Positions 2,449-23,475 of a DNA stretch of 64,000 bases are shown one piece after another. Source of the DNA: Desulfobulbaceae bacterium DB1 (GTDB lineage Bacteria > Desulfobacterota > Desulfobulbia > Desulfobulbales > SURF-16); the NCBI GenBank assembly GCA_001914235.1, contig MQUF01000014.1, positions 2,005 through 66,004 of the forward strand, in the 5' to 3' direction. Positions within the stretch are counted from its first letter, which is position 1; every line of letters starts with the position of its first letter. The notes under the pieces are model-generated. The model was not told where the DNA came from, did no database searches, and worked only from the letters and a program-made list of their open reading frames with translations. The position numbers and the translations under genes were made by a program.

Positions 2449-4086
2449 TTATTCCTTGAAATTCTGGGCCACCGGATAGCGGCGGCCGAAGCCGAAGGCC
2501 TTGGAGGTGATTTTCAGCCCCATGGCGGCCTGATGGCGTTTGTATTCATTGCGCTTGATGCGGCGTACGGTATCCGCAACGATTGAACGGGCAAAGCCCT
2601 GGGCGGCGATTTCCTCAATGGAGCGATGCTCCTCCAGATAGGCCTTGAGGATGGGGTCGAGCACCTCGTAGGGGGGCAGGTCGTCCTGGTCTGTCTGGTT
2701 CGGCGCCAGTTCCGCGCTGGGTGCGCGGCTGATGGTGCGCGGCGGAATGATTTCCCGCTCGCGATTGACGAAACGGGACAGCTCATACACCAGCTGCTTG
2801 GGCACATCGGCAAGCAGCGACAGGGCGCCTGCCATGTCGCCGTACAGGGTGCAGTAGCCCACCGCCATCTCCGATTTGTTGCCGGTGGAAAGCAGCAGGG
2901 CGCCGAACTTGTTGGCCATGGCCATCAGCAGGGTGCCCCGGATACGGGCCTGGATGTTCTGTTCGGTCACGTCTTCGGCGCGTCCGGCAAAAAGAGGGGA
3001 AAGGCTGCGGCGCAAAGAATCAAACGGATCGGTTATGGGGATGATTTCAAAACGGATGCCGAGGTTCAGCGCCAGCTGTTGTGCATCCTCGATGCTTGCC
3101 TCGGAGGTATAGGGCGAGGGCAGCGCCACCCCCATGACGTTTTCGCGGCCCAGGGCCTCGGTTGCAACGGCGCAGGTCAGGGCTGAATCGATGCCGCCGC
3201 TTAAGCCGAGCAGCACCCGGCTGAAGCCGCATTTTCTGATGTAATCCCGGCACCCCATGGCCAGGGCCTGAAAGACCAGGGCTGTCTCGTCGGGCAGCGC
3301 AGGCTCCGTACCGCTTGTAATCGCCTCACTGTCAATGATGAGCAGCTCTTCCTGAAACGCCGCCGCCTGGCGGCAGAGCCGGCCGTTTTCGTCCAGCACC
3401 AGGCTTGCGCCGTCAAAAAGAACCGAATCCTGGCCGCCCACCTGGTTGACATAAAGCAACGGCACGCGGTGTTTGCGGCAGAGCCGGGAAAAAAGGGAAA
3501 GCCTCAGCTGCTGCTTGCCCATGGTGAAGGGCGAAGCGGCGATGTTGATCAGCAGATCCATGCCCGCATTTTTAAGATCCGCCACCGGGTTTACCTGATA
3601 AAGCGGGTGGGGGAAACCGTCCTCGTCGTTGAAAATGTCCTCGCAGATGGTGAGGCCGAGGCGCAGGCCTTTATAGAAAAAGGGGATGCCGGCCGCGCCT
3701 GGTTCAAAATAGCGGGATTCGTCAAAAACATCATAGGTGGGCAGCAGTCTTTTGTGCGCGACGAAAAGAAGGCGGCCGTCCTCGAAAAGCAGGGCGCTGT
3801 TGTGCAGCGGTTTTCCGGTTGCCCCGGTGTGGCGGGTGATGGCGCCGCAGATCACCCCGATGCCGTGGGTTTGGCCAATGAGACGCTCAAGTGCCTGATC
3901 CTGCCTGGCAAGAAAGGCCTCGTGTTCCAGATAGTCCTGGGGCGGATAGCCGCTGACCGCCAGTTCAGGCAGAACGGCGAGTGCGCAGCCGGCACGCTGG
4001 GCCTGCGTGATATACTGGAGGATCCGGGCGGTGTTGGCCTCGAAATCTCCGATAACGGGATTTGCTTGGATCATGGCGATTTTCAT
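2449..4086 (-). CDS. nadE: glutamine-dependent NAD+ synthetase (N-terminal CN-hydrolase domain + NAD synthase domain)
   Basis: 545 aa. N-terminal nitrilase-like domain (LAVLPELAVSGYPPQD, ICEDIF). C-terminal PP-loop LGLSGGIDSAL and the NAD synthase C-terminus. Confidence 0.9.
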   Translation of the reverse strand: MKIAMIQANPVIGDFEANTARILQYITQAQRAGCALAVLPELAVSGYPPQDYLEHEAFLARQDQALERLIGQTHGIGVICGAITRHTGATGKPLHNSALLFEDGRLLFVAHKRLLPTYDVFDESRYFEPGAAGIPFFYKGLRLGLTICEDIFNDEDGFPHPLYQVNPVADLKNAGMDLLINIAASPFTMGKQQLRLSLFSRLCRKHRVPLLYVNQVGGQDSVLFDGASLVLDENGRLCRQAAAFQEELLIIDSEAITSGTEPALPDETALVFQALAMGCRDYIRKCGFSRVLLGLSGGIDSALTCAVATEALGRENVMGVALPSPYTSEASIEDAQQLALNLGIRFEIIPITDPFDSLRRSLSPLFAGRAEDVTEQNIQARIRGTLLMAMANKFGALLLSTGNKSEMAVGYCTLYGDMAGALSLLADVPKQLVYELSRFVNREREIIPPRTISRAPSAELAPNQTDQDDLPPYEVLDPILKAYLEEHRSIEEIAAQGFARSIVADTVRRIKRNEYKRHQAAMGLKITSKAFGFGRRYPVAQNFKE

Positions 4087-12634: not shown

Positions 12635-13972
12635 TCAAGCTGAGCAGCGGATCCGTTCGACGAGGCGTTTGAGGCGACCATGGGCGGCATGAAGCTCGGC
12701 AAGGTCGACAAAGGCCTTGGTCTTTTCGGCTTTGGCCGGATCAAAACCGCCGTGCAGGGGATGACGGCCGAGCAGCGCGGTGACAAAGGCGCGTTCCAGG
12801 CGATCACCCGGTTCATCCGACTGCTCCATCTCGGGCAGCTCATACCAGGCACGAAAGGCGGGCTCTTGCATGGCCTGCCGCGCCTCCTGCCGGAGGTCAA
12901 GGGTTGCGGCAAAGCCGTGGCGGAAGAGATCGGTTATGCACCAGATATCGAGCAGGGCGGCCGCTTTGACCGCGGCATCCGCGCCCTCGGGCGGGAGGTT
13001 TTCCTGCTGTGTTGACAGTGATTCCAGGCCCAGGGAAATGGTGTCCCGCACCCGTTCGGCAATATCCATGATCTGTTTGATATCATGTGTTTTTTCACCA
13101 TAGGCGATGATCGCGCTGTTGATGGCCCAGACGATTTCCTGTTCCAGGCGGGAAAGGAAATCCTTGTCCACAATCAGGGCCAGGGCCTGCTGTAACAGGG
13201 TGGTTTCGATCAAAGGGGAGGCATAGACGGAGGGAACCCGGGTGATGGCATTGTCCAGCGCTTCCTTGGTTCGGGGCAACGGCTGGTGCGTGGGTGGCCG
13301 GGAAAAGAGGACGGATGCCTCGTCCGGTGCGACAAAGCCGATATCCTCCATGCGGCAGTTGCGGAAGCGCAAGGCCTCTTCCTCGATCTGCGTTTCCAGA
13401 TCCACCCGAATCTGGCTGAGGAGTTCGTGGGCCGCGGTTGAATCGTGCTGGTACAGGGCATCCAGCAAGGTAAACGGATGGGTTTTCAGCGATATTTCCG
13501 ATTTTAATTCCAACAGATAGAAGCCGTCCGGAGTCATGGCGCGGGTCGTCTCGTTTTCCTCGTCCTCCGGCGGAACCTGATCGGTATCAGGATCATACAC
13601 CGTGACGGTCTTGGTCAGGAAGAGCAGCTGTAAGACGTAGTTCAGGGAGAAAAAAGCCGTGGCCAGCTTTCCGGGTCCGGCCAGCGCAAAGGCGGACAGC
13701 CATTCATCCAGGCTGTCAACGGCAAAGTCGTAACGGTTCCAGCAGTCGAGATCGATACATGCCTCCAATTGTTCCTGGTTGAGCTGGAGGAGGATGGGCA
13801 GGGCCTGATCCAGGCCGATCTCCCGGACAATATAGTAGGCTTCCAGGGGTTCGAGGCCGGCGACCTCGGCGGGCAGGTCGCTTGCGGCCAGAAGCCGCTC
13901 GCCCCTGCGGGCCAGGGCGCGGGTCAGATCAGCGCGAAACGGGGTTAATTCGACGATTTTGTTGTCTGTCAT
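12635..13972 (-). CDS. conserved hypothetical protein (~445 aa, acidic, helical)
   Basis: Long ORF with coding-like composition. Start placed at MTDNKIVELTPF (13972); the upstream ATG at 14020 is also possible. No motif recognised. Confidence 0.6.
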   Translation of the reverse strand: MTDNKIVELTPFRADLTRALARRGERLLAASDLPAEVAGLEPLEAYYIVREIGLDQALPILLQLNQEQLEACIDLDCWNRYDFAVDSLDEWLSAFALAGPGKLATAFFSLNYVLQLLFLTKTVTVYDPDTDQVPPEDEENETTRAMTPDGFYLLELKSEISLKTHPFTLLDALYQHDSTAAHELLSQIRVDLETQIEEEALRFRNCRMEDIGFVAPDEASVLFSRPPTHQPLPRTKEALDNAITRVPSVYASPLIETTLLQQALALIVDKDFLSRLEQEIVWAINSAIIAYGEKTHDIKQIMDIAERVRDTISLGLESLSTQQENLPPEGADAAVKAAALLDIWCITDLFRHGFAATLDLRQEARQAMQEPAFRAWYELPEMEQSDEPGDRLERAFVTALLGRHPLHGGFDPAKAEKTKAFVDLAELHAAHGRLKRLVERIRCSA

Positions 13973-14128
13973 ATTCTCTGTCAGTTGGAGGTGATCGAAG
14001 TTTCTTGCCGCAAAGGGCAATTTTTAAAGCAATTCTTTACTTGTTCCGCAACCGGAGTCAAGGGCGCCAGCATATACTTGATCCTCTCTATATAATGCAA
14101 TAATGCACACCTGTCCCTTCTATGTTTT

Positions 14129-14331: not shown

Positions 14332-15828
14332 TTATCCCTCGGTCTCTTGGTGAACCAGATCTTCAGCGATTTCCCGGAACTGCTCCAAGGCGGCTTCGAG
14401 GTCTTCGATGATCTCGGCGGCAATGATGCCGGGATCGGGCAGATTATCGGAATCCTCCAGGGATTCGTCCTTGAGCCAGAAGATGTCGAGGCTTGCCTTG
14501 TCGCGGTTGATGATTTCATCGTAATCATATGACCGCCAGCGGCCGGCTTGATTGTCTCCTGACCAGGTGGGGTTGCGGTCCCGGCGGTTGGCAGGGTTGT
14601 AGTTTTCGACAAACTCGTCCAGATCGCTTCGTTTCAAGGGGTTGGTCTTAAGGGTGAAGTGGATGTTGGTGCGGAGATCATAGATCCAGAGTTTTCTGGT
14701 CCACGGGGTTTCCGAGGCCGGTTTCTTATCAAAGAAGAGGACGTTGGCCTTGACCCCTTGAGCGTAGAACAGGCCGGTGGGCAAACGCAGCAGGGTGTGG
14801 ACGTCACAATCGTGCAGGAGTTTGCGGCGCACGGTTTCCCCGGCCCCGCCTTCGAAGAGGACATTATCCGGCACCACGATGCCGCAGCGGCCATGCTGTT
14901 TGAGCAGGGTTTTGACATGCTGGACGAAGTTGAGCTGTTTGTTGGAGGTGGTGGCCCAGAAATCCTCACGCTCAACAATATCCACCTCCTTGGAGGCCTT
15001 GCCGTCTTCGCCGACAATGGTGGTGCTGCTCTTTTTGCCGAAGGGGGGATTGGTCAGGACGATCTCAAAGCGGTCGCCGGGATCGGCGGCCAGGGAATCG
15101 GCCACGGTGAGCGGCAGTTTGCCGCCGTTATTGCCGATGCCGTGCAGCATCAGGTTCATGGCGCAGAGCCGGGCGGTATTCTGAACCAGCTCCCAGCCGG
15201 AAAAGGTCGTGTCCTTAAGCGCCCGCTTCTCCTCCTTGGTCATATTGGGGTTATGGGCGATGATGTATTCATGGGCGGCCAGCAGAAAGCCGCCGGTGCC
15301 GCAGGCCGGGTCGCAAATGGTCTCACCCGGTTTGGGCCGGACCACATCAACCATGGCCTGGATCAGCGGGCGCGGGGTGAAATACTGGCCGGCCCCGGAC
15401 TTGGTATCCTGGGCGTTTTTTTCCAGCAAGCCCTCGTAGGCATCGCCCTTGACATCGGCGCTCATCATTGACCAGTTTTCCTTGCCGATCAGATCGACCA
15501 GCAAACGGCGCAGTTTGGCCGGGTCCTGAAACTTGTTCTGGGATTTATTGAAGATCAGCCCCAGTAAGCCTTTTTCCTTCCCTAATTGATCCAGGGTATG
15601 GCGGTAATGATCAAACAGCTCATCGCCGTCTTTCTTGATCAGGCTGGGCCAGTCGTACCCTGCCGGCACCGCACTCGGCTTGTTATACGGGGCGTGGGTC
15701 CGCTCATCCGACATCTTGAGAAACAGCAGATAGGTCAACTGCTCGACGTAATCACCATAACTCATCCCATCATCCCGCAGGACGTTACAGTAGTTCCAGA
15801 GTTTTTGGACGATATTTGCTGGGGTCAT
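14332..15828 (-). CDS. hsdM: type I restriction-modification system, DNA methyltransferase subunit M
   Basis: 498 aa. HsdM N-terminal domain (LWNYCNVLRDDGMSYGDYVEQLTYLLFLK). AdoMet motif DPACGTGGFL. Catalytic NPPFG. Confidence 0.95.
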   Translation of the reverse strand: MTPANIVQKLWNYCNVLRDDGMSYGDYVEQLTYLLFLKMSDERTHAPYNKPSAVPAGYDWPSLIKKDGDELFDHYRHTLDQLGKEKGLLGLIFNKSQNKFQDPAKLRRLLVDLIGKENWSMMSADVKGDAYEGLLEKNAQDTKSGAGQYFTPRPLIQAMVDVVRPKPGETICDPACGTGGFLLAAHEYIIAHNPNMTKEEKRALKDTTFSGWELVQNTARLCAMNLMLHGIGNNGGKLPLTVADSLAADPGDRFEIVLTNPPFGKKSSTTIVGEDGKASKEVDIVEREDFWATTSNKQLNFVQHVKTLLKQHGRCGIVVPDNVLFEGGAGETVRRKLLHDCDVHTLLRLPTGLFYAQGVKANVLFFDKKPASETPWTRKLWIYDLRTNIHFTLKTNPLKRSDLDEFVENYNPANRRDRNPTWSGDNQAGRWRSYDYDEIINRDKASLDIFWLKDESLEDSDNLPDPGIIAAEIIEDLEAALEQFREIAEDLVHQETEG

Positions 15829-15883: not shown

Positions 15884-17311
15884 TTACTTGCGCCGGTCGA
15901 GGGTGTTTTTTGCCACGGTAAAACAGTGAATACTGCTGGGGGTAAACTCGACTTGCACATCCGCGATATCCTTGATGCCGGAGCGTGAAAGTGTTGTCAC
16001 CAGGGGGATTCTTTGAAGTTCATGTTTCTTAACAAATCCCAACAGCCCCTTAATCTCCCGATGATCATCAAAAGCCCGGTCGGACCATTTCACCTCAACG
16101 GCAAAGCGTGGTCTTTGCTGGGCGTCAAGGCTTACCGAGTCCACTTCACCGCTTCTCCACCGCGCATAATATAACGAGTCCACAAAAGCTGCATTATGCA
16201 GCCACTGGCTGAATACGGCGGTTTCAACCAGCTGCCCCATGGCTTCATGATGTTCATCAACGGGTCCGAACAGGGCCGCACGCATGGTTGGGTTGGTAAG
16301 ATAGACTTTGAAGGTCATCATCCTTCTGAAGTGGGCCGCATCCTGATCAATCCTGCGAATCCTGCGGATGAGAAAGGCTGCCTCAAGGTATTCGAGATAC
16401 TTGACGAGGGTATTTTTTGCCACATGAGAAGTCTTGGAAAGATCATCAAGACTCAATTCCTGCCCGGTGTTATAGGCAAGTGTATTAAAGAGGCTGTTCA
16501 ACTCCTGAATATCCGTAATTCCATACAGGATAGGCAAATCACGCAAGAGGACTTTGTCGATAATATCACTTTTAATGTAACGCCTTGGATCTTGCCGGAC
16601 AGCTTCTGAAAAGACGGCCTCAGGGTAGCCGCCAAAGTTCAGGTAGTCGACAAAAGCCTTATTGAGACCTTGGATGTCCTCGGTCTCATACCGTGGAGTA
16701 TTCCCGCTGCCAACAACTTCCCGGATCAATATTTTCTCCAGGCCGATGAAGCGCAAGTATTCAGCAAAGGTGAGAGGAGGAAGAACATATTCGGTAAACC
16801 TTCCGGCCCCGGATTCCGCACTCTTGGTTTTCAGTGCTGCCGCCGCCGAACCCGTGGCCACAAAACTGATGCCGCGAAAGGTATCGACCAATGACTTCAG
16901 GTGGACTTCCCAGCCTTTGAGATATTGGATTTCATCGAAAAACACATATAAGCGGGTGCCGTCCGGACGAGTAAACAACCGTTGGAATCTGGTAACCAAA
17001 CTCTCCAGGGACAACCCGGTATAGATTGGCGTCTCCATGGAAACATAGAGGATGTCCCGACCTTTTATTCCGCCATTATCAAGCAGATCCTGGATTGCGT
17101 GGTAGACCATAATCGTCTTGCCGACCCGGCGCGGCCCAAGCAAAACCACGGCCCGATTCACCCCGGTCTGCCCCACAAGAGACGAGAAATCCGGCAGATA
17201 GGCCCGGCGCGGGAACGCTTGATAGTCGGGTTCGATCCCGGCCCCTGCCTGCCACCATGGGTTATCGAGCCGTAAACGATATTCTATTTCTTTTTCAGAT
17301 ACTTGCAGCAT
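15884..17311 (-). CDS. AAA-type ATPase with DUF4143-like C-terminal domain, inserted between hsdS and hsdM
   Basis: About 475 aa from ATG 17311 (MLQVSEKEIEYRL). Walker A GPRRVGKT, Walker B YVFFDEIQY. The C-terminal half resembles the AAA_14/DUF4143 architecture. Confidence 0.75.
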   Translation of the reverse strand: MLQVSEKEIEYRLRLDNPWWQAGAGIEPDYQAFPRRAYLPDFSSLVGQTGVNRAVVLLGPRRVGKTIMVYHAIQDLLDNGGIKGRDILYVSMETPIYTGLSLESLVTRFQRLFTRPDGTRLYVFFDEIQYLKGWEVHLKSLVDTFRGISFVATGSAAAALKTKSAESGAGRFTEYVLPPLTFAEYLRFIGLEKILIREVVGSGNTPRYETEDIQGLNKAFVDYLNFGGYPEAVFSEAVRQDPRRYIKSDIIDKVLLRDLPILYGITDIQELNSLFNTLAYNTGQELSLDDLSKTSHVAKNTLVKYLEYLEAAFLIRRIRRIDQDAAHFRRMMTFKVYLTNPTMRAALFGPVDEHHEAMGQLVETAVFSQWLHNAAFVDSLYYARWRSGEVDSVSLDAQQRPRFAVEVKWSDRAFDDHREIKGLLGFVKKHELQRIPLVTTLSRSGIKDIADVQVEFTPSSIHCFTVAKNTLDRRK

Positions 17312-17460
17312 ACGAACCCTATAAGGGCAAAACAATGAACAAAGAGTTGTCAAATAAGATCAAAACATTAACCTTGCTAGACAATTAGCAAAAAAAACTT
17401 TACAAATCAAGACATTACGATTGCATGAAACAAATAGTTTTTACAGATTGCGCTCTTGAC

Positions 17461-17547: not shown

Positions 17548-19014
17548 TCATACTTTTTCCTTCTTATCTGTGTTGCGCAGTATAAGCTGGCCGGAAAAGG
17601 CCTTGCTCAGAATTGATTGGCGCAGACGTTCAGCCCGTTTGAGGTTGGCCTCGACCTGGGCCTCGATTTCGCGGGTCAGGGAGAGGCGGCGGTCGACTTC
17701 GGCGACGATGCGGTGTTGTTCGGCGAGGGGCGGGAGTGGAATCACGATTTGTCTCAATCCTGCTAGTGGAACAGTTTTTTGGGCTGTTCCTGTTGCTATC
17801 GCAGTTGCTTGCCTAAATACGTAATTCGAAGCCATCGCAAAAGTGAGATAGTCCATCGGAGAATTTTCATGCGGGCGTAGTATAGCCATGTGGCGCTGAA
17901 TACTAAAGCGTTTTTCGGTTGTGACCCGAACAGGAATGCCATAGCTCCCCACCAAAGTATATAACAGGTCTCCTTGTTTCGGTTGGCGATTGGGATCAAG
18001 AGATTGGTAATAGTCTTCCGCTACATGGCGCGTATTAGAAAAATCAATTTTGCCGCTACGAACATTACCAATTACAATAAATGGAATTCCTTGATCAGTT
18101 TGCGGCGGCGGTTGGTGATCGCCGTCAGTAAGGTGTGCAATTAGTTGCTCGACAGTCGCCCACACCCATCCCTCCGGCAATTCAGGCAGGTCGCTGGTGT
18201 CGGGCGGGGCAGGTTCCTTGTATTTTCCTTTGCCTTGCCACTGGCTGCGACGGGTTTCGAGGATGCGTTGCAGAAGGTGCTCCCCGGTTTCAAGGTCGCG
18301 GCCTTGGCGGCGGGCGGCCGCTCCCGGCGTCCTGCCTTCCGCGGCACTGGCGCGTCCCTGTGCGGCGAGTTCGGCTTCGGTTTCAACCAGGCGTCCTTCG
18401 ACAGCGGCTTTGAGTACGGCGGCTTTGTAGCGTTTGAGGTTGGCCTTGACGCGCTTGAGATTGGTAACGGCTTCATCAAGCCGGGAGAATTGTTTTTCGA
18501 TTTCCGCAACGATGCGTTTTTGTTGTTCAGGCGGAGGCAGAGGAATTTCGCACTCTTTCAAATAGGGAGTTGTAACACGCCGTTGACCAACAGCACCGGT
18601 CATGTATCGTTCTGCTTCGCCACGAAAATTTTTACTAGAAACGTAGTAATAGATGTATCTGGCGTCGATACCTTCTCGGGGACGTAATACATGAAACTCT
18701 GTTGAACCAAAACCGAGATCATTTTTTAGTTTAGGCACGATAGCCATTTTCCCGTTTTCCATACACGGCGTAATTTTAGCAAACAGAACATCTCCTTCTT
18801 GGAATGGAGTGAAACCTTTTTTAACTTCTCCGAATAAGCGTTCTCCACTTACATCTATTGATCCATCTGCCGCCCCAACAGCTGGCATCGGGACAAACGA
18901 GACATTTAGGGCATCGGAAATACCAGCTTTGTTGATGCGAGGATTCACATCAGCGATGTCTTCTATTGTTGAAACTGTCCAGCCGACAGGAAGTTGTTTG
19001 TTATCCACTCTCAC
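17548..19014 (-). CDS. hsdS: type I restriction-modification system, specificity subunit S
   Basis: 488 aa. Two target-recognition domains separated by coiled-coil conserved regions (LPPPEQQKRIVAEIEKQFSRLDEA and LPPLAEQHRIVAEVDRRLSLTREIE). GTG start overlaps the upstream stop (GTGA). Confidence 0.92.
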   Translation of the reverse strand: MRVDNKQLPVGWTVSTIEDIADVNPRINKAGISDALNVSFVPMPAVGAADGSIDVSGERLFGEVKKGFTPFQEGDVLFAKITPCMENGKMAIVPKLKNDLGFGSTEFHVLRPREGIDARYIYYYVSSKNFRGEAERYMTGAVGQRRVTTPYLKECEIPLPPPEQQKRIVAEIEKQFSRLDEAVTNLKRVKANLKRYKAAVLKAAVEGRLVETEAELAAQGRASAAEGRTPGAAARRQGRDLETGEHLLQRILETRRSQWQGKGKYKEPAPPDTSDLPELPEGWVWATVEQLIAHLTDGDHQPPPQTDQGIPFIVIGNVRSGKIDFSNTRHVAEDYYQSLDPNRQPKQGDLLYTLVGSYGIPVRVTTEKRFSIQRHMAILRPHENSPMDYLTFAMASNYVFRQATAIATGTAQKTVPLAGLRQIVIPLPPLAEQHRIVAEVDRRLSLTREIEAQVEANLKRAERLRQSILSKAFSGQLILRNTDKKEKV

Positions 19015-19310
19015 GCCGCCAAAGCCTCATTCAACTCTCCAATCATCGCATTCAACTCCTCACCAAAAAGCTGATACACCTTACCCAATCCACCTTCCTG
19101 GGCAAAAGGCGCATATCCGAAATCGGTCGCTCCAGGCGTCCATGCCTCCCGCGACACGAATACGTCCTGGATGTCGTCCGTCTCAATACCGAGATTGGCG
19201 GTAATATGCTCGCGGATCATATCGGAGACCCATGGAAAACACATACGAAAATCCATATGATGTTTTTGGACAGAGAAAACATCATATGGGATATTTTGTT
19301 TCATCTTCAT
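19011..19310 (-). pseudogene. hsdR 3'-terminal remnant (tail copy 3); frame intact, 99-aa ORF
   Basis: The C-terminal 71 aa (MIREHITANLGIETDD...GGLGKVYQLFGEELNAMIGELNEALAA) parallel the end of HsdR. The first 28 codons are unrelated. Stop overlaps the hsdS start. Confidence 0.7.
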
Positions 19311-19398
19311 GCTATCTCTTCATCATATGCAAAAAACAACTCACTTTGCGGGCAAATCAAAGAGGGATTTTTCGTCTAATCCGTGATATATTTAAACC

Positions 19399-19587
19399 AT
19401 GCAAACGAAAAGCTTGAAAGAAACCAATCCTTATCTGAAAGCCCCGGTAACCCGGGAAAAAGGTTTGTGGTCCAGCGTGTCGTCATCATCGGCGATCGAA
19501 GGCGTCCATGTCACCAGAGAGAAGGTCACCGGCACGACGGTTACTTCTCCTCGTAAGCCTGAAGAGTCCGGTCAATCACCGCGCTGA
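19399..19587 (+). CDS. candidate FicA/VbhA/YhfG-like antitoxin (small ORF with SxxxEG inhibitory-helix motif)
   Basis: 62-aa ORF containing SSSSAIEGV, which matches the [S/T]xxxE[G/N] motif. Compare E. coli YhfG ASRRLEGV, recalled from memory. Convergent with fic and overlaps its 3' end by 47 nt. No clear RBS. Confidence 0.45.
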   Translation: MQTKSLKETNPYLKAPVTREKGLWSSVSSSSAIEGVHVTREKVTGTTVTSPRKPEESGQSPR

Positions 19588-20194
19588 AAAATTCTCCCAT
19601 GGGTTGATAATCCCTATCCATTCCCTTGCGTACAGCCGCAAAATACTCCTCTTTTCTTTCCCCCTCGAACTCACTGAAATCCAAGGGCGGCAATCCCGCC
19701 TGCAGGGCCATAAGCATTGCCAGAAGCCGGGACAGTCTGCCGTTTCCTTCGCGGAACGGGTGGATCAATAATAATTCGGTGTGCACAATTGCCAGGGCCT
19801 GGATCTGCTCCTCTCGATCTGCAAAGGTGCAGGGCGTAAATCGGCGCAACTCATTTTTCTCGAAATCCGCCATCAGTTGCGGGATGACTCTGGGCAAGGC
19901 AAAAGTAAACCCGCCTTTGCTGATGGTTACCTGCCGATATTTCCCAGCCCACTCATAGACCGGACCAAGCCAGTTGCGATGCATATTGCAGATGTCGCCA
20001 GCGGTGAATTGATGATCCTGATCGAAGATCTCGGTCATTTGTTCCGTGACCCGGTAGAGTTCTCTTGTTTCTAACTCTTCAATCTCCTGCTTGTCTTTTA
20101 TATGGAGAAGATTTTTGAGAACAAGTCCCCCGGATCCTGCCTCATATTGATCCTCAATGAAGCCGTCGGTTTTATATCGTCCGGACTTTTTCAT
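19541..20194 (-). CDS. fic: Fic-domain protein (AMPylase-type toxin, class I: no internal inhibitory motif)
   Basis: Canonical Fic motif HPFREGNGRLSRLL. About 217 aa from ATG 20194, 1 nt after the upstream stop. I find no [S/T]xxxE[G/N] within the protein. Confidence 0.88.
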   Translation of the reverse strand: MKKSGRYKTDGFIEDQYEAGSGGLVLKNLLHIKDKQEIEELETRELYRVTEQMTEIFDQDHQFTAGDICNMHRNWLGPVYEWAGKYRQVTISKGGFTFALPRVIPQLMADFEKNELRRFTPCTFADREEQIQALAIVHTELLLIHPFREGNGRLSRLLAMLMALQAGLPPLDFSEFEGERKEEYFAAVRKGMDRDYQPMGEFFSAVIDRTLQAYEEK

Positions 20195-20195
20195 G

Positions 20196-20675
20196 CTAGG
20201 CCGCCAAGGCCTCATTTAACTCTTCAATAATTACATCCGAATCCTCGCCAAAGAATTGATGCTCCCGGCTCAAACCACCTTCCGGGGTGGAAGGTGCATA
20301 ATCAAAATCGGTCGATCCCATCATCCCTGTCAACCGTGACACGAATACGTTCTGGATGTCGTCCGTCTCAATATCGATTGAATTGACCCGGTAGCCGACG
20401 GAGATTATGGCATCCAGATTATAATGGGTTAACGTTCGCCGAACCTGCCTTTTTCCCTCTTTTTGAACTGCCGAGAAATCCTCGGTAGTTGCTTTTTTCT
20501 CAAGTTCCTCATCCGCAAAAATATTTTTCAGATGGAGGCTGATATTGTCCGAGGAGGTGTCAAAGAGTTCTGCCATCTGCCTCTGGGTAAGCCAGACGGT
20601 GTCGCGGTCGAGCCGCACCTCAACGGTTCTCTCTTCTGCCTCATAGATAATTATTTCAACATGCTCATTTTGCAT
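20196..20675 (-). pseudogene. chimeric ORF: RhuM-family N-terminal ~100 aa fused in frame to hsdR tail copy 2
   Basis: N-terminus VEVRLDRDTVWLTQRQMAELFDTSSDNISLHLKNIF...HYNLDAIISVGYRVNS matches the RhuM N-terminal region (full-length RhuM is ~330 aa). C-terminus IETDDIQNVFVSR...DFDYAP...VIIEELNEALAA matches the HsdR tail. ATG at 20675 lies 1 nt after the hsdR stop. Confidence 0.7.
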
Positions 20676-20676
20676 A

Positions 20677-23475
20677 TCAAGCCGCCAAAGCCTCATTCAA
20701 TTCTTCAATTATCACATTCAACTCCTCGCCAAAAAGTTGGTGTACCTTTCCCAGCCCGCCTTGCTGGGCAAATGGCGCATAGTCGAAATCGTCGGTTTCA
20801 ATGCCGAGATTGGCGGCGATATGGTCGCGGATCATGATCAGCCAGTTACGCTGTTCGTCGGTAAATTTCCTGCCGCTTGCCTCCTGCTGGGCGAGCCAGG
20901 CCTTGAAGTTGGCCTCAACCTTTTCCGGAAACGGTACCAGCTCATTCTCCTGATGCATGGCAAAGCGGACCAGGGAAACAAGATCAGTCAAAATATGCGG
21001 GGCATTGGCCCCCTTGACCCTGGCCTTTTCCAGAGCCGCATAAGCATCCCAGAGATTATCAACCCGGAAATGGTGCGGCGGCTTTTCGATCCGAGCGGCC
21101 AGCTCCTTGATATCCGCAAAACGCAAGCGGCTCTTGTAGGGCCTGCTGTAGAGAACCTGCAGGGCGGTGATCTCGTCGCGGTTGTCGGCCAGAAACTGCT
21201 CGAAGGATTGGACCATGGACTTGACCTTTTCCAGGGCCTCGACGGAAAACGCGGCGGAGATCACCTGATCTTCACTGATGTTATCAATGATCTGCTCGTT
21301 CTTTCGCTTGACCTCGACCAGGAAGTTGCGGAGCGCCGGATTATGCAGCGGCCTGGTGGCCTCGACAATCAGTTTGACCCCGGCCTGTTTGATCTGCTCT
21401 TCGCTGGGCTCGGTGCCGCCGTTATCCTGCCTGGCCCTGTCAATCTGATTGTCGGGCTTGATGGCGGTGACCAGACCCGCGGTCAACTGTTCGATGGTCT
21501 TACCATTGGAAAGAAGGGTCACCTGGCGGTCATCCGCAGGGGTTATCTGGCGGCCGATGCGGGCCATGCGGGCGGCAAGGGACGAGATCACATCCGGCTC
21601 GGTATTGCCAAGCGCGATCGCCTGCAGGAGTTTTTCGAAACTGACCGTGGGCTTTCTCTCCATGGGCCGGGAATCGGTCTTGTCCATCTCGCAGACGCCG
21701 ACGCAATCGACAATGATGAAATGGTCCTTGACCCTGGCATCCGGGGTGACCGATTGTAAGTCGCTCTGGTTGATGATCCGGACGCCGCGGCCCTTCATCT
21801 GCTCGAAGAAGGAGCGGGAGCGGACGGCCCGCATGAACATGACGATTTCCAGCGGCTTGATGTCGGTGCCGGTGGCGATCATGTCAACGGTAACGGCGAT
21901 GCGGGGATTGAAGCTGTTGCGGAAGGAGGCGATCAGCTGTTCCGGCGTGCCGCCGGAGGTTCTGTAGGTGATCTTCTGGGCGAAATCGTTGCCCTTGCCA
22001 AACTCCTCGCGGATGATCTTGACGATATCCTCGGCGTGGCTGTCGTCTTTCGCGAAGATCAGGGTCTTGGGCACATATTCGCGGCCCGGAAAGATCTCGG
22101 TCAGCACCTTGTCGCGAAAGGTTTGGACAATGGTGCGGATTTGGTCGACGGCCACCACATCGCGGTCGAGCTTGTTGGGATCGTACTCGAAATCTTCATC
22201 GAGCTTTTCCCAGCGGGTGGTGCGGGTCTCGCGGTCGCGTTTGTCGATATAGTAGCCGGACTCAACCTTGGAGCCTGCTTCGGTGATCCTGGTCTTGATT
22301 CGGTAGACATCGTAATTGACGTTGACGCCATCGGCCACGGCCCGTTCGTGATCGTATTCCATCACCAGGTTGCGGTTGAAGAAGCCGAAGGTCTGCTTGG
22401 ACGGGGTAGCGGTGAGGCCGATGAGAAAAGCGTCGAAATACTCCAGCACCTGCCGCCAGAGGTTGTAGATGGAGCGATGGCATTCATCGGTGATGATGAA
22501 ATCAAAGGTTTCGATGGGGATATCGGGGTTGTATTCCAGGGGTGGGATTTCCTTGAACAGACTGTCCAGCCCGTGAGGCGATTGGTCCTCGGCCTCTTCG
22601 GGGAGCTCTTGGCCCCGGAGCATGGAGTAAAGCCGCTGGATGGTGCAAATGCAGACCTTTGCGGTGGTATCGATGGTGTTGGAGGTGAGGCGCTGGACGA
22701 TGAACTCCTCGCTGAACTTGTAATTGTTGTAGGGTGAGACGTATTGCTGGAACTCTTTTAAGGTCTGCTTGCCCAGGTTGCCGCGATCGACCAGAAAGAG
22801 GACGCGCTTGGCCCCGGCGAACTTGATGAGCCGGTAGATAATGGAAATGGCGGTGAAGGTCTTGCCGCTGCCGGTGGCCATCTGGATCAGCGACCGGGGG
22901 CAGTCGCGGGCCAGGGATTTTTCGAGATTTTTGACCGCCTGGATCTGGGCGGGCCAGAAACCGTCTTCGATGAGAGGCGGCATGGTGCGGAGGCGGCCCC
23001 GCAGGGTGGAATGCCGGCTGAGATATCCGGAAGTTGCTTCGGCGGTTTGGCTGGGGATTTTCTCTGCTTCCTCGAAAAGATACTCCGGCTTATGAAAGGC
23101 GAAGACCTGGCGGGAGCGGGGGGCGGGATCAAGGTTATTGGTAAATCTGGTCTCGTCGCCGGTGGATTCGTAACAAAAGGGCAGCGGTTTGGCCCAGGCA
23201 GGGAGGCCGTCGGGCAGGCCGTGGGCGTATTTGTCGGACTGGATCTCAACCCCGGTTAGCGTAGTGCCGGTCTTTTTGGCCTCGATGACGCCTGCGGCCT
23301 TGGCGTCCACATAGAGAAGATAATCGGCAAAGCCATGTCCGCTTTTCAGGGGAAATTCACGGATAGCCACGCCCTTGGCGGCAAAGATGTTGGTGTCCTT
23401 GACATCCTGAACCAGCCAACCGGCCTGGGTAAGCAGTTGATCTATTTTTTCGCGGGCGTGAATTTCGCAGGTCAT
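20677..23475 (-). CDS. hsdR: type I restriction-modification system, endonuclease/translocase subunit R
   Basis: 932 aa. N-terminal HsdR nuclease-like domain. Helicase motif I MATGSGKT, motif II ITDECHR, motif VI QMKGRGVR. C-terminal helical tail. Confidence 0.95.
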   Translation of the reverse strand: MTCEIHAREKIDQLLTQAGWLVQDVKDTNIFAAKGVAIREFPLKSGHGFADYLLYVDAKAAGVIEAKKTGTTLTGVEIQSDKYAHGLPDGLPAWAKPLPFCYESTGDETRFTNNLDPAPRSRQVFAFHKPEYLFEEAEKIPSQTAEATSGYLSRHSTLRGRLRTMPPLIEDGFWPAQIQAVKNLEKSLARDCPRSLIQMATGSGKTFTAISIIYRLIKFAGAKRVLFLVDRGNLGKQTLKEFQQYVSPYNNYKFSEEFIVQRLTSNTIDTTAKVCICTIQRLYSMLRGQELPEEAEDQSPHGLDSLFKEIPPLEYNPDIPIETFDFIITDECHRSIYNLWRQVLEYFDAFLIGLTATPSKQTFGFFNRNLVMEYDHERAVADGVNVNYDVYRIKTRITEAGSKVESGYYIDKRDRETRTTRWEKLDEDFEYDPNKLDRDVVAVDQIRTIVQTFRDKVLTEIFPGREYVPKTLIFAKDDSHAEDIVKIIREEFGKGNDFAQKITYRTSGGTPEQLIASFRNSFNPRIAVTVDMIATGTDIKPLEIVMFMRAVRSRSFFEQMKGRGVRIINQSDLQSVTPDARVKDHFIIVDCVGVCEMDKTDSRPMERKPTVSFEKLLQAIALGNTEPDVISSLAARMARIGRQITPADDRQVTLLSNGKTIEQLTAGLVTAIKPDNQIDRARQDNGGTEPSEEQIKQAGVKLIVEATRPLHNPALRNFLVEVKRKNEQIIDNISEDQVISAAFSVEALEKVKSMVQSFEQFLADNRDEITALQVLYSRPYKSRLRFADIKELAARIEKPPHHFRVDNLWDAYAALEKARVKGANAPHILTDLVSLVRFAMHQENELVPFPEKVEANFKAWLAQQEASGRKFTDEQRNWLIMIRDHIAANLGIETDDFDYAPFAQQGGLGKVHQLFGEELNVIIEELNEALAA

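Follow-up and report, generated by a model that had tools for sequence, protein, structure and literature searches.

The 64,000-nucleotide stretch of Desulfobulbaceae bacterium DB1 that was analyzed here (contig MQUF01000014.1; hereafter the window, with all positions counted from its first letter) carries a fic gene that meets, tail to tail, a small open reading frame (ORF) of 62 amino acids on the opposite strand. The small ORF lies in the spacer downstream of fic and extends 47 nt into the 3′ end of fic, such that its stop codon (19585–19587) lies inside the fic coding sequence. A preliminary description of this DNA had proposed that a class I Fic toxin is inhibited in trans by the product of this convergent ORF. 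From the conservation of the small gene, the properties of the Fic protein and the likeness of the pair to FicY/AntY of Yersinia pseudotuberculosis, it is very likely that the two genes form a toxin–antitoxin module of the FicY/AntY type, with Fic as the FicT toxin and the 62-aa protein as its antitoxin. Coordinates of all features are collected in Table 1.

The Fic protein is 217 residues long. We place its start at the ATG at 20194 and not at 20215, because the homologs share the start MKKSGRY. The protein matches the Pfam family Fic (2.4e-17) and the PADLOC model PDLC04839 of the defense candidate PDC-S04 (6.3e-76), the latter over its full length (profile positions 3–202 of 205), and 3432 homologs of it were found. 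The canonical active site that had been noted previously is indeed complete: the FIC motif HxFx(D/E)GNGRxxR is present as HPFREGNGRLSR at residues 145–156, including the second arginine, R156, which is the expected partner of an inhibitory glutamate. Among 24 homologs, H145–R153 and R156 are invariant and only positions 154 and 155 of the motif vary. The earlier claim that Fic has no inhibitory motif of its own also stands, as a regular-expression search of the 217-aa sequence returned no [ST]xxxE[GN], nor even [ST]xxxE. The absence of an inhibitory helix from the Fic polypeptide excludes classes II and III.

The conserved N-terminal T9..E14-D15..Y17 stretch was considered as a cis-acting helix and rejected: the window protein (DGFIED) does not have the right spacing, and the stretch corresponds in the alignment to EDAYCYPGS, the N-terminal segment of Fic-1. 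Three of the 24 homologs carry [ST]GLxEN at residues 10–15, and this too aligns with the class I EDxY..PGS segment and not with an inhibitory helix.

In a search of the PDB with the Fic profile, the best match was Fic-1 of Pseudomonas (8wt0, 2.8e-21), followed by Bep1 (5eu0, 2e-17), VbhT (3shg, 3zc7 and 3zcb, ~7e-17) and EcFicT (5jff, 1.2e-12). All four of these proteins were solved in complex with trans antitoxins. An AlphaFold2 (AF2) model of Fic (predicted local distance difference test score, pLDDT, 77.6) gave target-normalized template modeling scores (TM-scores) of 0.74–0.77 to the three VbhT structures and 0.76 to Fic-1. Furthermore, the N-terminal EDQYEAGS of the window protein aligns with EDAYCYPGS of Fic-1, and an EDxY..PGS-type stretch is the N-terminal segment discussed for class I Fic proteins (PMC5033356). 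The PDB matches, the fold and the N-terminal segment therefore identify this protein as a class I Fic toxin, the criteria for class I FicT being those of Engel et al. (2012) as given in PMC5033356.

Residues 1–27 of Fic (20114–20194, minus strand) are among its best-conserved parts, with Y7, T9, E14, Y17, G20 and S21 invariant in the 24 homologs. They nevertheless have pLDDT values below 50 in the AF2 model. Folding of the N-terminus may require contact with the antitoxin or the enzyme body, as in the ‘N-terminal lock’ of class I.

The small ORF opens with MQTKSLKETNPYLKAPVTREKGLWSSVSSSSAIEGVHV and carries the SxxxEG motif of the preliminary description as S30-S-A-I-E34-G35. Its AF2 model consists of a helix from residue 16 to residue 34, ending at Glu34, and a disordered tail. 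This low-confidence tail is the least conserved part of the protein and is the part encoded within the overlap with fic. Foldseek returned no match for the model in the PDB, as expected for a single helix.

Conservation of the pair was assessed in 86 loci encoding Fic relatives from many phyla, at 33–92% Fic identity. Eighty of these loci represent one genome per species (33–60% identity) and the remaining six are metagenome contigs (82–92%). The window ORF and three of its close copies served as seed for a profile, which was iterated on the six-frame translations of the loci. In 66 of the 86 it found exactly one match, always on the opposite strand and directly 3′ of fic, and none elsewhere in those 66 loci. 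The ORFs found by the profile are 48–83 aa long and begin with ATG in all but two, for which no start codon could be set. By inspection, the remaining 20 loci include four with an SSAIEG- or STA[IV]ET-type ORF (one clipped by the contig end) and 14 with a VbhA-like S[FAH]xIE[GN] ORF, all 18 of these ORFs being convergent with fic. In total, a convergent, motif-bearing small ORF lies just 3′ of fic in 84 of the 86 loci. Only in L077 and L080, which encode the most distant Fic proteins (33–34%), is the motif ORF located upstream on the same strand. Seven further loci, L087–L092 and L093 from Escherichia coli, agree.

Within the family, Glu34 is invariant in both of our alignments (A2, 46 sequences; A3, 40 sequences), and Ser30 is at least 90% conserved in A2 and invariant in A3. 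The first 40 codons of the gene lie wholly outside fic, and across eight close loci they show a ratio of nonsynonymous to synonymous substitution rates (dN/dS) of 0.05–0.32, with 16, 12 and 33 variable columns at codon positions 1, 2 and 3, respectively. Given these ratios and the excess of third-position variation, the ORF is a protein-coding gene under purifying selection. Conservation in syntenic loci had been suggested beforehand as a check on the proposed pairing, and the outcome supports inhibition of Fic in trans by the convergent gene, as do the missing cis helix and the class I affinity of the toxin.

Gene callers skip the small ORF in several loci. Where it is annotated, its name is nearly always ‘hypothetical protein’, as for the copy of E. 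coli KL53, WP_000069461.1. A related fic gene with a convergent 56-aa ‘hypothetical protein’ and a 4-nt overlap is present in 45 of 5426 complete E. coli genomes. In KL53 (L093; NZ_CP030919.1, 4025–4809) the pair directly adjoins a type I hsdR gene, which is on the strand of the antitoxin. The window antitoxin also carries an N-terminal K-S-L-x-x-T-N-P-Y-L in residues 4–14 (19399–19440), with L6, N10 and L13 invariant in 40 sequences; the AntY-type and VbhA-like convergent antitoxins are without it. Comparison by eye revealed no strict link between the length of the Fic N-terminus and the presence of the TNPYL motif in the antitoxin.

The lack of a Shine-Dalgarno sequence had previously been taken as a sign that the small ORF might be fortuitous. 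We confirmed from the sequence that none precedes the ATG in the window. Upstream of the ATG, the sole feature common to the close loci is a −10 box, which in the window reads TGaTATATT and is separated from the ATG by 6 nt. When 66 distinct upstream regions were compared with shuffled controls, a −10-like hexamer ending 4–9 nt (mostly 5–7) before the ATG was present in 39, versus 13.2 in the controls. A TGn extension accompanied 23 of the 39, versus 1.0 in the controls. Fifteen of the 66 regions, mostly from Enterobacteria, instead have a Shine-Dalgarno sequence, which occurs in none of the 39 with a −10 box. Because the conserved −10 box sits just before the ATG, the antitoxin mRNA is probably leaderless and transcribed from an extended −10 promoter, and the same placement suggests leaderless mRNAs for most antitoxins of the family. 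A leaderless mRNA would account for the missing Shine-Dalgarno sequence, and the earlier doubt about the ORF loses its ground.

The tail-to-tail layout, described at first as unusual, is already known and biochemically validated, and it prevails throughout this Fic clade. In Y. pseudotuberculosis YPIII, FicY is inhibited by AntY, the product of a downstream convergent ORF (Lu et al., 2020, Front Microbiol, PMC7479194). AntY carries the motif S22TAIET27 and blocks FicY AMPylation of ParE in vitro in a dose-dependent manner, and ficY and antY have independent promoters (PMC7479194). The window pair resembles FicY/AntY in that the Fic is of class I, contains HPFREGNGR and lacks a cis helix, that a probable inhibitor of ~50–60 aa is encoded by a downstream convergent ORF with its own promoter (putative in the window), and that a Ser-x-x-x-Glu is located at the end of a helix; the small proteins fall in one profile family. 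The two systems differ in several respects. The window antitoxin reads SSAIE-G, with the canonical glycine, whereas AntY reads STAIE-T, and it has the extra conserved N-terminal KSLKETNPYL that the AntY type lacks. Its mRNA, with a −10 box at the ATG, appears to lack a leader, in contrast to the enterobacterial copies, which carry a Shine-Dalgarno sequence, and its overlap with fic is 47 nt, as opposed to 4 nt in the enterics. Unlike FicY/AntY, the window pair is inserted inside a type I restriction-modification operon.

Enterobacterial Fic relatives are 41–46% identical to the window Fic, and the window-seeded profile recovers the enterobacterial small ORFs of L053, L055 and L060 at 1e-7 to 9e-9, with that of L053 included in A2. 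A primer pair in the supplement of PMC7479194 encodes MTKKTVH.. and ..VGLAR-stop, which match the termini of these three small ORFs, and the S22–T27 numbering of AntY fits the small ORF of L053. The profile membership, the primer-encoded termini and the numbering thus place AntY, indirectly, in the same family as the 62-aa protein, the match being made through primers and motif numbering and not through the AntY sequence itself. The primers are labeled ‘FicY ... YPK_0608’ in the supplement, and they fit the small antitoxin ORFs and not the Fic genes of related loci; the ‘FicY’ label may be wrong.

In E. coli K-12, the antitoxin gene of yhfG-fic is located upstream of the toxin gene, and the canonical ficA lies directly upstream of the toxin within one operon (PMC5033356). 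The window pair shares the toxin fold, the catalytic motif and a trans-acting [S/T]xxxE[G/N] helix with VbhT/VbhA, EcFicT/EcFicA (Fic/YhfG), Fic-1/AntF and Bep1/BiaA, and with Fic-1 also the N-terminal EDxY..PGS segment. It departs from the canonical FicTA arrangement in that its antitoxin gene is downstream, convergent and overlapping, and no membership of its antitoxin in Pfam VbhA or YhfG was found.

Several observations weigh against the assignment of the small protein as a Fic antitoxin. SxxxEG-type motifs arise by chance in 6 of the 183 M-to-stop ORFs of 50–80 aa in the window (3.3%), so that the motif taken alone is weak evidence; it is the conservation that makes this ORF more than a chance occurrence. 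The preliminary description had proposed a search against the VbhA and YhfG families, and the search gave no match: neither Pfam VbhA (PF18495) nor YhfG/DUF2559 matched the window ORF at E ≤ 0.1. Among 46 members of the small-ORF family, the nearest approach to VbhA is that of a single protein at E = 0.11, and YhfG is matched by none of them; no Pfam, NCBIfam or PADLOC model significantly matches the 62-aa ORF or its 46 relatives. When the small-protein profile was compared with 177,635 PDB sequences, the top two matches were the Bartonella Fic antitoxins 5eu0_B and 5nh2_B, aligned at the motif, at weak E-values of 0.78 and 1.3. Profile alignment by hhalign set the family in register with the upstream L077 antitoxin (E 0.011) and, across no more than 16 columns, with E. 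coli YhfG (E 0.031). The likeness to known antitoxins spans only ~20 residues with weak statistics and, as judged from these alignments, is limited to the inhibitory helix. Many family members read E-T-G in place of the canonical E-[G/N], though AntY, which is one of them, is active. Finally, PDC-S04 had no defense phenotype in the sole native-host test found in the literature. On balance, the 62-aa protein most likely works like a FicA antitoxin outside the curated VbhA and YhfG families.

Within this module, Fic, whose catalytic motif is complete and which lacks an inhibitory helix of its own, would act as the AMP-transferase. The product of the small gene would bind Fic, with the end of its long helix (S30-x-x-x-E34-G35) entering the ATP site, where Glu34 would pair with R156, the second arginine of the Fic motif, and prevent productive ATP binding. 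In Fic-1/AntF, Glu28 of AntF is the catalytic residue of a de-AMPylase (PMC13327609), and the analogy suggests a second role for Glu34, which may likewise turn the complex into a de-AMPylase. Likely targets, by homology, would be two ATPase subunits, ParE of topoisomerase IV and GyrB of gyrase. The antitoxin would be transcribed from its own promoter, with the TGn-extended −10 box 6 nt before the ATG, and leaderless translation is probable.

The overlap raises the question of antisense control, as the preliminary description had suggested. Convergence with a 47-nt overlap means that the two mRNAs are necessarily complementary at their 3′ ends, and antisense-RNA coupling of fic and the antitoxin gene is plausible from this geometry. 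A coding overlap is present in 56 of the 66 profile-matched loci (4–68 nt, median 29), and across loci the overlap length ranges from −74 to +68 nt. Within the overlap, an intrinsic terminator separating the genes is not possible, and no convincing one is present close by. A search of positions 18900–20800 against Rfam returned only a chance match to a snoRNA (E 0.9), far below the gathering score. It seems to us rather unlikely that the layout, with its promoter-minimal, leaderless antitoxin gene, is a conserved regulatory device in which fic transcription collides with or antisense-silences antitoxin expression and thereby wires the balance of Fic and inhibitor to transcription of the host operon. 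In the window, transcription of the restriction-modification operon would have this effect too if it crosses the whole antitoxin gene on its way to hsdS and hsdM, and the Fic/inhibitor balance could then act as a trigger during phage attack.

Three other explanations for the small ORF were weighed. The first is that its product works with Fic chiefly in a role other than inhibition, for instance as the catalytic cofactor of a constitutive de-AMPylase or as a phage-sensing abortive-infection trigger tied to the restriction-modification operon. The match of Fic to PDC-S04, its place in a type I operon next to the further candidates PDC-S05 and PDC-S01, and the conserved N-terminal KSLxxTNPYL motif, which has no assigned role, would all fit such a partner. 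Yet this proposal is more an extension of the inhibitor model than an alternative to it, and PDC-S04 was without defense in the one test noted above. Restriction-modification genes like those of the window accompany the pair in only ~13 of 94 loci, which means that the pair is not bound to such operons. We therefore regard a primarily non-inhibitory partner as improbable.

Less probable still, and to our minds quite remote, is that the conserved element is mainly an antisense RNA that regulates fic in a type I-like manner, the peptide being secondary or non-functional. The 3′ overlap in 56 of 66 loci, which obliges the transcripts to pair, speaks for this, as does an antitoxin promoter that points against fic and, in the window, against read-through to hsdS. 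However, the best-conserved codons, 1–36, lie outside the overlap and follow a protein-coding substitution pattern, whereas the overlap itself encodes the disordered tail and varies in length as described. The element also has no Rfam match, and the AntY protein alone inhibits FicY. That the plus-strand ORF is merely a fortuitous open frame antisense to the fic 3′ end and spacer, with its SxxxEG by chance and no protein made, hardly merits belief: the chance frequency of the motif, the missing Shine-Dalgarno sequence, the missing family match and the omissions by gene callers would allow it, but ORF, ATG and motif persist in constant place and strand down to 33–40% Fic identity across many phyla, the substitutions outside fic follow the reading frame of the ORF itself (dN/dS 0.05–0.32; 33 variable third positions versus 16 and 12), and the homologous AntY is active in vitro.

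The surroundings of the toxin–antitoxin pair form a minus-strand type I restriction-modification operon, as determined by comparison of the window ORFs with Pfam, NCBIfam and PADLOC (Table 1).

Table 1. Positions of the fic–antitoxin pair and neighboring features in the window.
Feature	Position	Strand	Basis or remark
fic (217-aa class I Fic, FicT/FicY-like AMP-transferase)	19541..20194	−	Pfam, PADLOC and PDB matches
Fic active-site motif HPFREGNGRLSR (residues 145–156)	19727..19762	−	Read from the sequence
Antitoxin gene, AntY-like, 62 aa, convergent with fic	19399..19587	+	Conservation, dN/dS
Inhibitory-motif codons S30-S-A-I-E34-G35	19486..19503	+	Alignments
Putative extended −10 promoter TGaTATATT	19384..19392	+	6 nt before the antitoxin ATG
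Tail-to-tail coding overlap, 47 nt	19541..19587		Last 15 codons of each gene
Spacer between fic and the 99-aa ORF, 230 nt	19311..19540		
Chimeric 166-aa ORF: RhuM N-terminal fragment and hsdR 3′ tail copy	20196..20696	−	Pfam RhuM, PADLOC PDC-S05
Further hsdR C-terminal tail copy, 99-aa ORF	19011..19310	−	Pfam EcoEI_R_C, 1.5e-06
hsdR, type I restriction subunit R	20677..23475	−	Pfam ResIII, EcoEI_R_C, HSDR_N
hsdS, specificity subunit	17548..19014	−	Pfam Methylase_S, 2.4e-23
AAA_14/DUF4143 ATPase	15884..17353	−	PADLOC candidate PDC-S01, 1.2e-57
HsdM-like DNA methyltransferase	14332..15828	−	NCBIfam hsdM and MADS2 methyltransferase, both below curated cut-offs

On the downstream side of fic, the 99-aa hsdR-tail ORF overlaps the start of hsdS. 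On the upstream side, the stop codon of a chimeric ORF lies 1 nt before the fic ATG. This ORF is an in-frame fusion of an hsdR tail copy to a truncated RhuM gene, in which only the N-terminal ~100 aa match PADLOC PDC-S05 and only residues 69–107 match Pfam RhuM. Immediately ahead of fic, the chimeric ORF contains S-I-D-I-E-T, and it was considered as an upstream antitoxin and rejected: the serine belongs to the RhuM fragment, whereas IETDD is part of the hsdR tail copy, a mixed origin that marks the motif as a junction artifact, and the ORF is absent from related loci in which other genes precede fic. The AAA_14/DUF4143 ATPase is embedded between hsdS and the HsdM-like methyltransferase. With the matches to PDC-S04, PDC-S05 and PDC-S01, the operon therefore holds three different embedded defense-candidate families. 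A 461-aa ORF downstream of the methyltransferase (12635–14020, minus strand) had no NCBIfam match at E ≤ 0.1.

Loci outside restriction-modification operons share with the window only positions 19384–20204, about 820 bp that comprise fic, the antitoxin gene and the −10 box. The ~820-bp pair moves as a unit, and in the window it has entered a type I operon at the point where hsdR and hsdS meet. In the window and in L081–L083 the pair is placed behind a copy of the hsdR 3′ tail, and the junction with hsdS is re-established by additional tail copies.

The window contains the hsdR 3′ end in three direct copies, at 19015–19220, 20200–20377 and 20681–20858, the latter two being 78% and 61% identical to the first. 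They correspond to the EcoEI_R_C tail, ...GIETDD..GGLGKV.QLFGEELN..IEELNEALAA. A tail copy follows each inserted cassette, namely the RhuM remnant and the fic–antitoxin pair, and the last copy overlaps the hsdS start. The pattern suggests that cassettes were inserted through recombination at the 3′ end of hsdR and that each insertion re-formed the hsdR/hsdS junction. Related loci are built in the same way. In L081, the 54-aa ORF before hsdS (3062–3226) has a decayed hsdR tail, ..LNVIIEEKIEALAA, at its end. In L083, several defense-type cassettes follow one another (Fic; RhuM-Fic; DUF1016/YhcG; Mrr; HamA), and hsdR-tail remnants flank two of them, before fic (1630–1875) and after the RhuM-Fic gene (3905–4060). 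The L083 locus as examined has no intact hsdR.

What is new is that the convergent layout is general across this Fic clade and many phyla, beyond one Yersinia pair, that a leaderless mRNA probably underlies expression of the antitoxin, and that the antitoxins form a family without curated annotation. The clade-wide layout and the leaderless mRNA leave the understanding of Fic inhibition unchanged. The window Fic resembles PDC-S04 in its full-length match and its defense context, and PDC-S04 is modeled as a single gene, without a convergent antitoxin. As defense-prediction tools treat Fic in this way, cloning Fic alone would test the toxin without its inhibitor. The small-protein profile matches 1650 database proteins, and among the best 120 matches the listed names are ‘hypothetical protein’ except for two. 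At least 1650 ‘hypothetical’ small proteins, none of them covered by a model in Pfam, NCBIfam or PADLOC, can now be interpreted as the antitoxins that belong to the toxins of a large Fic clade.

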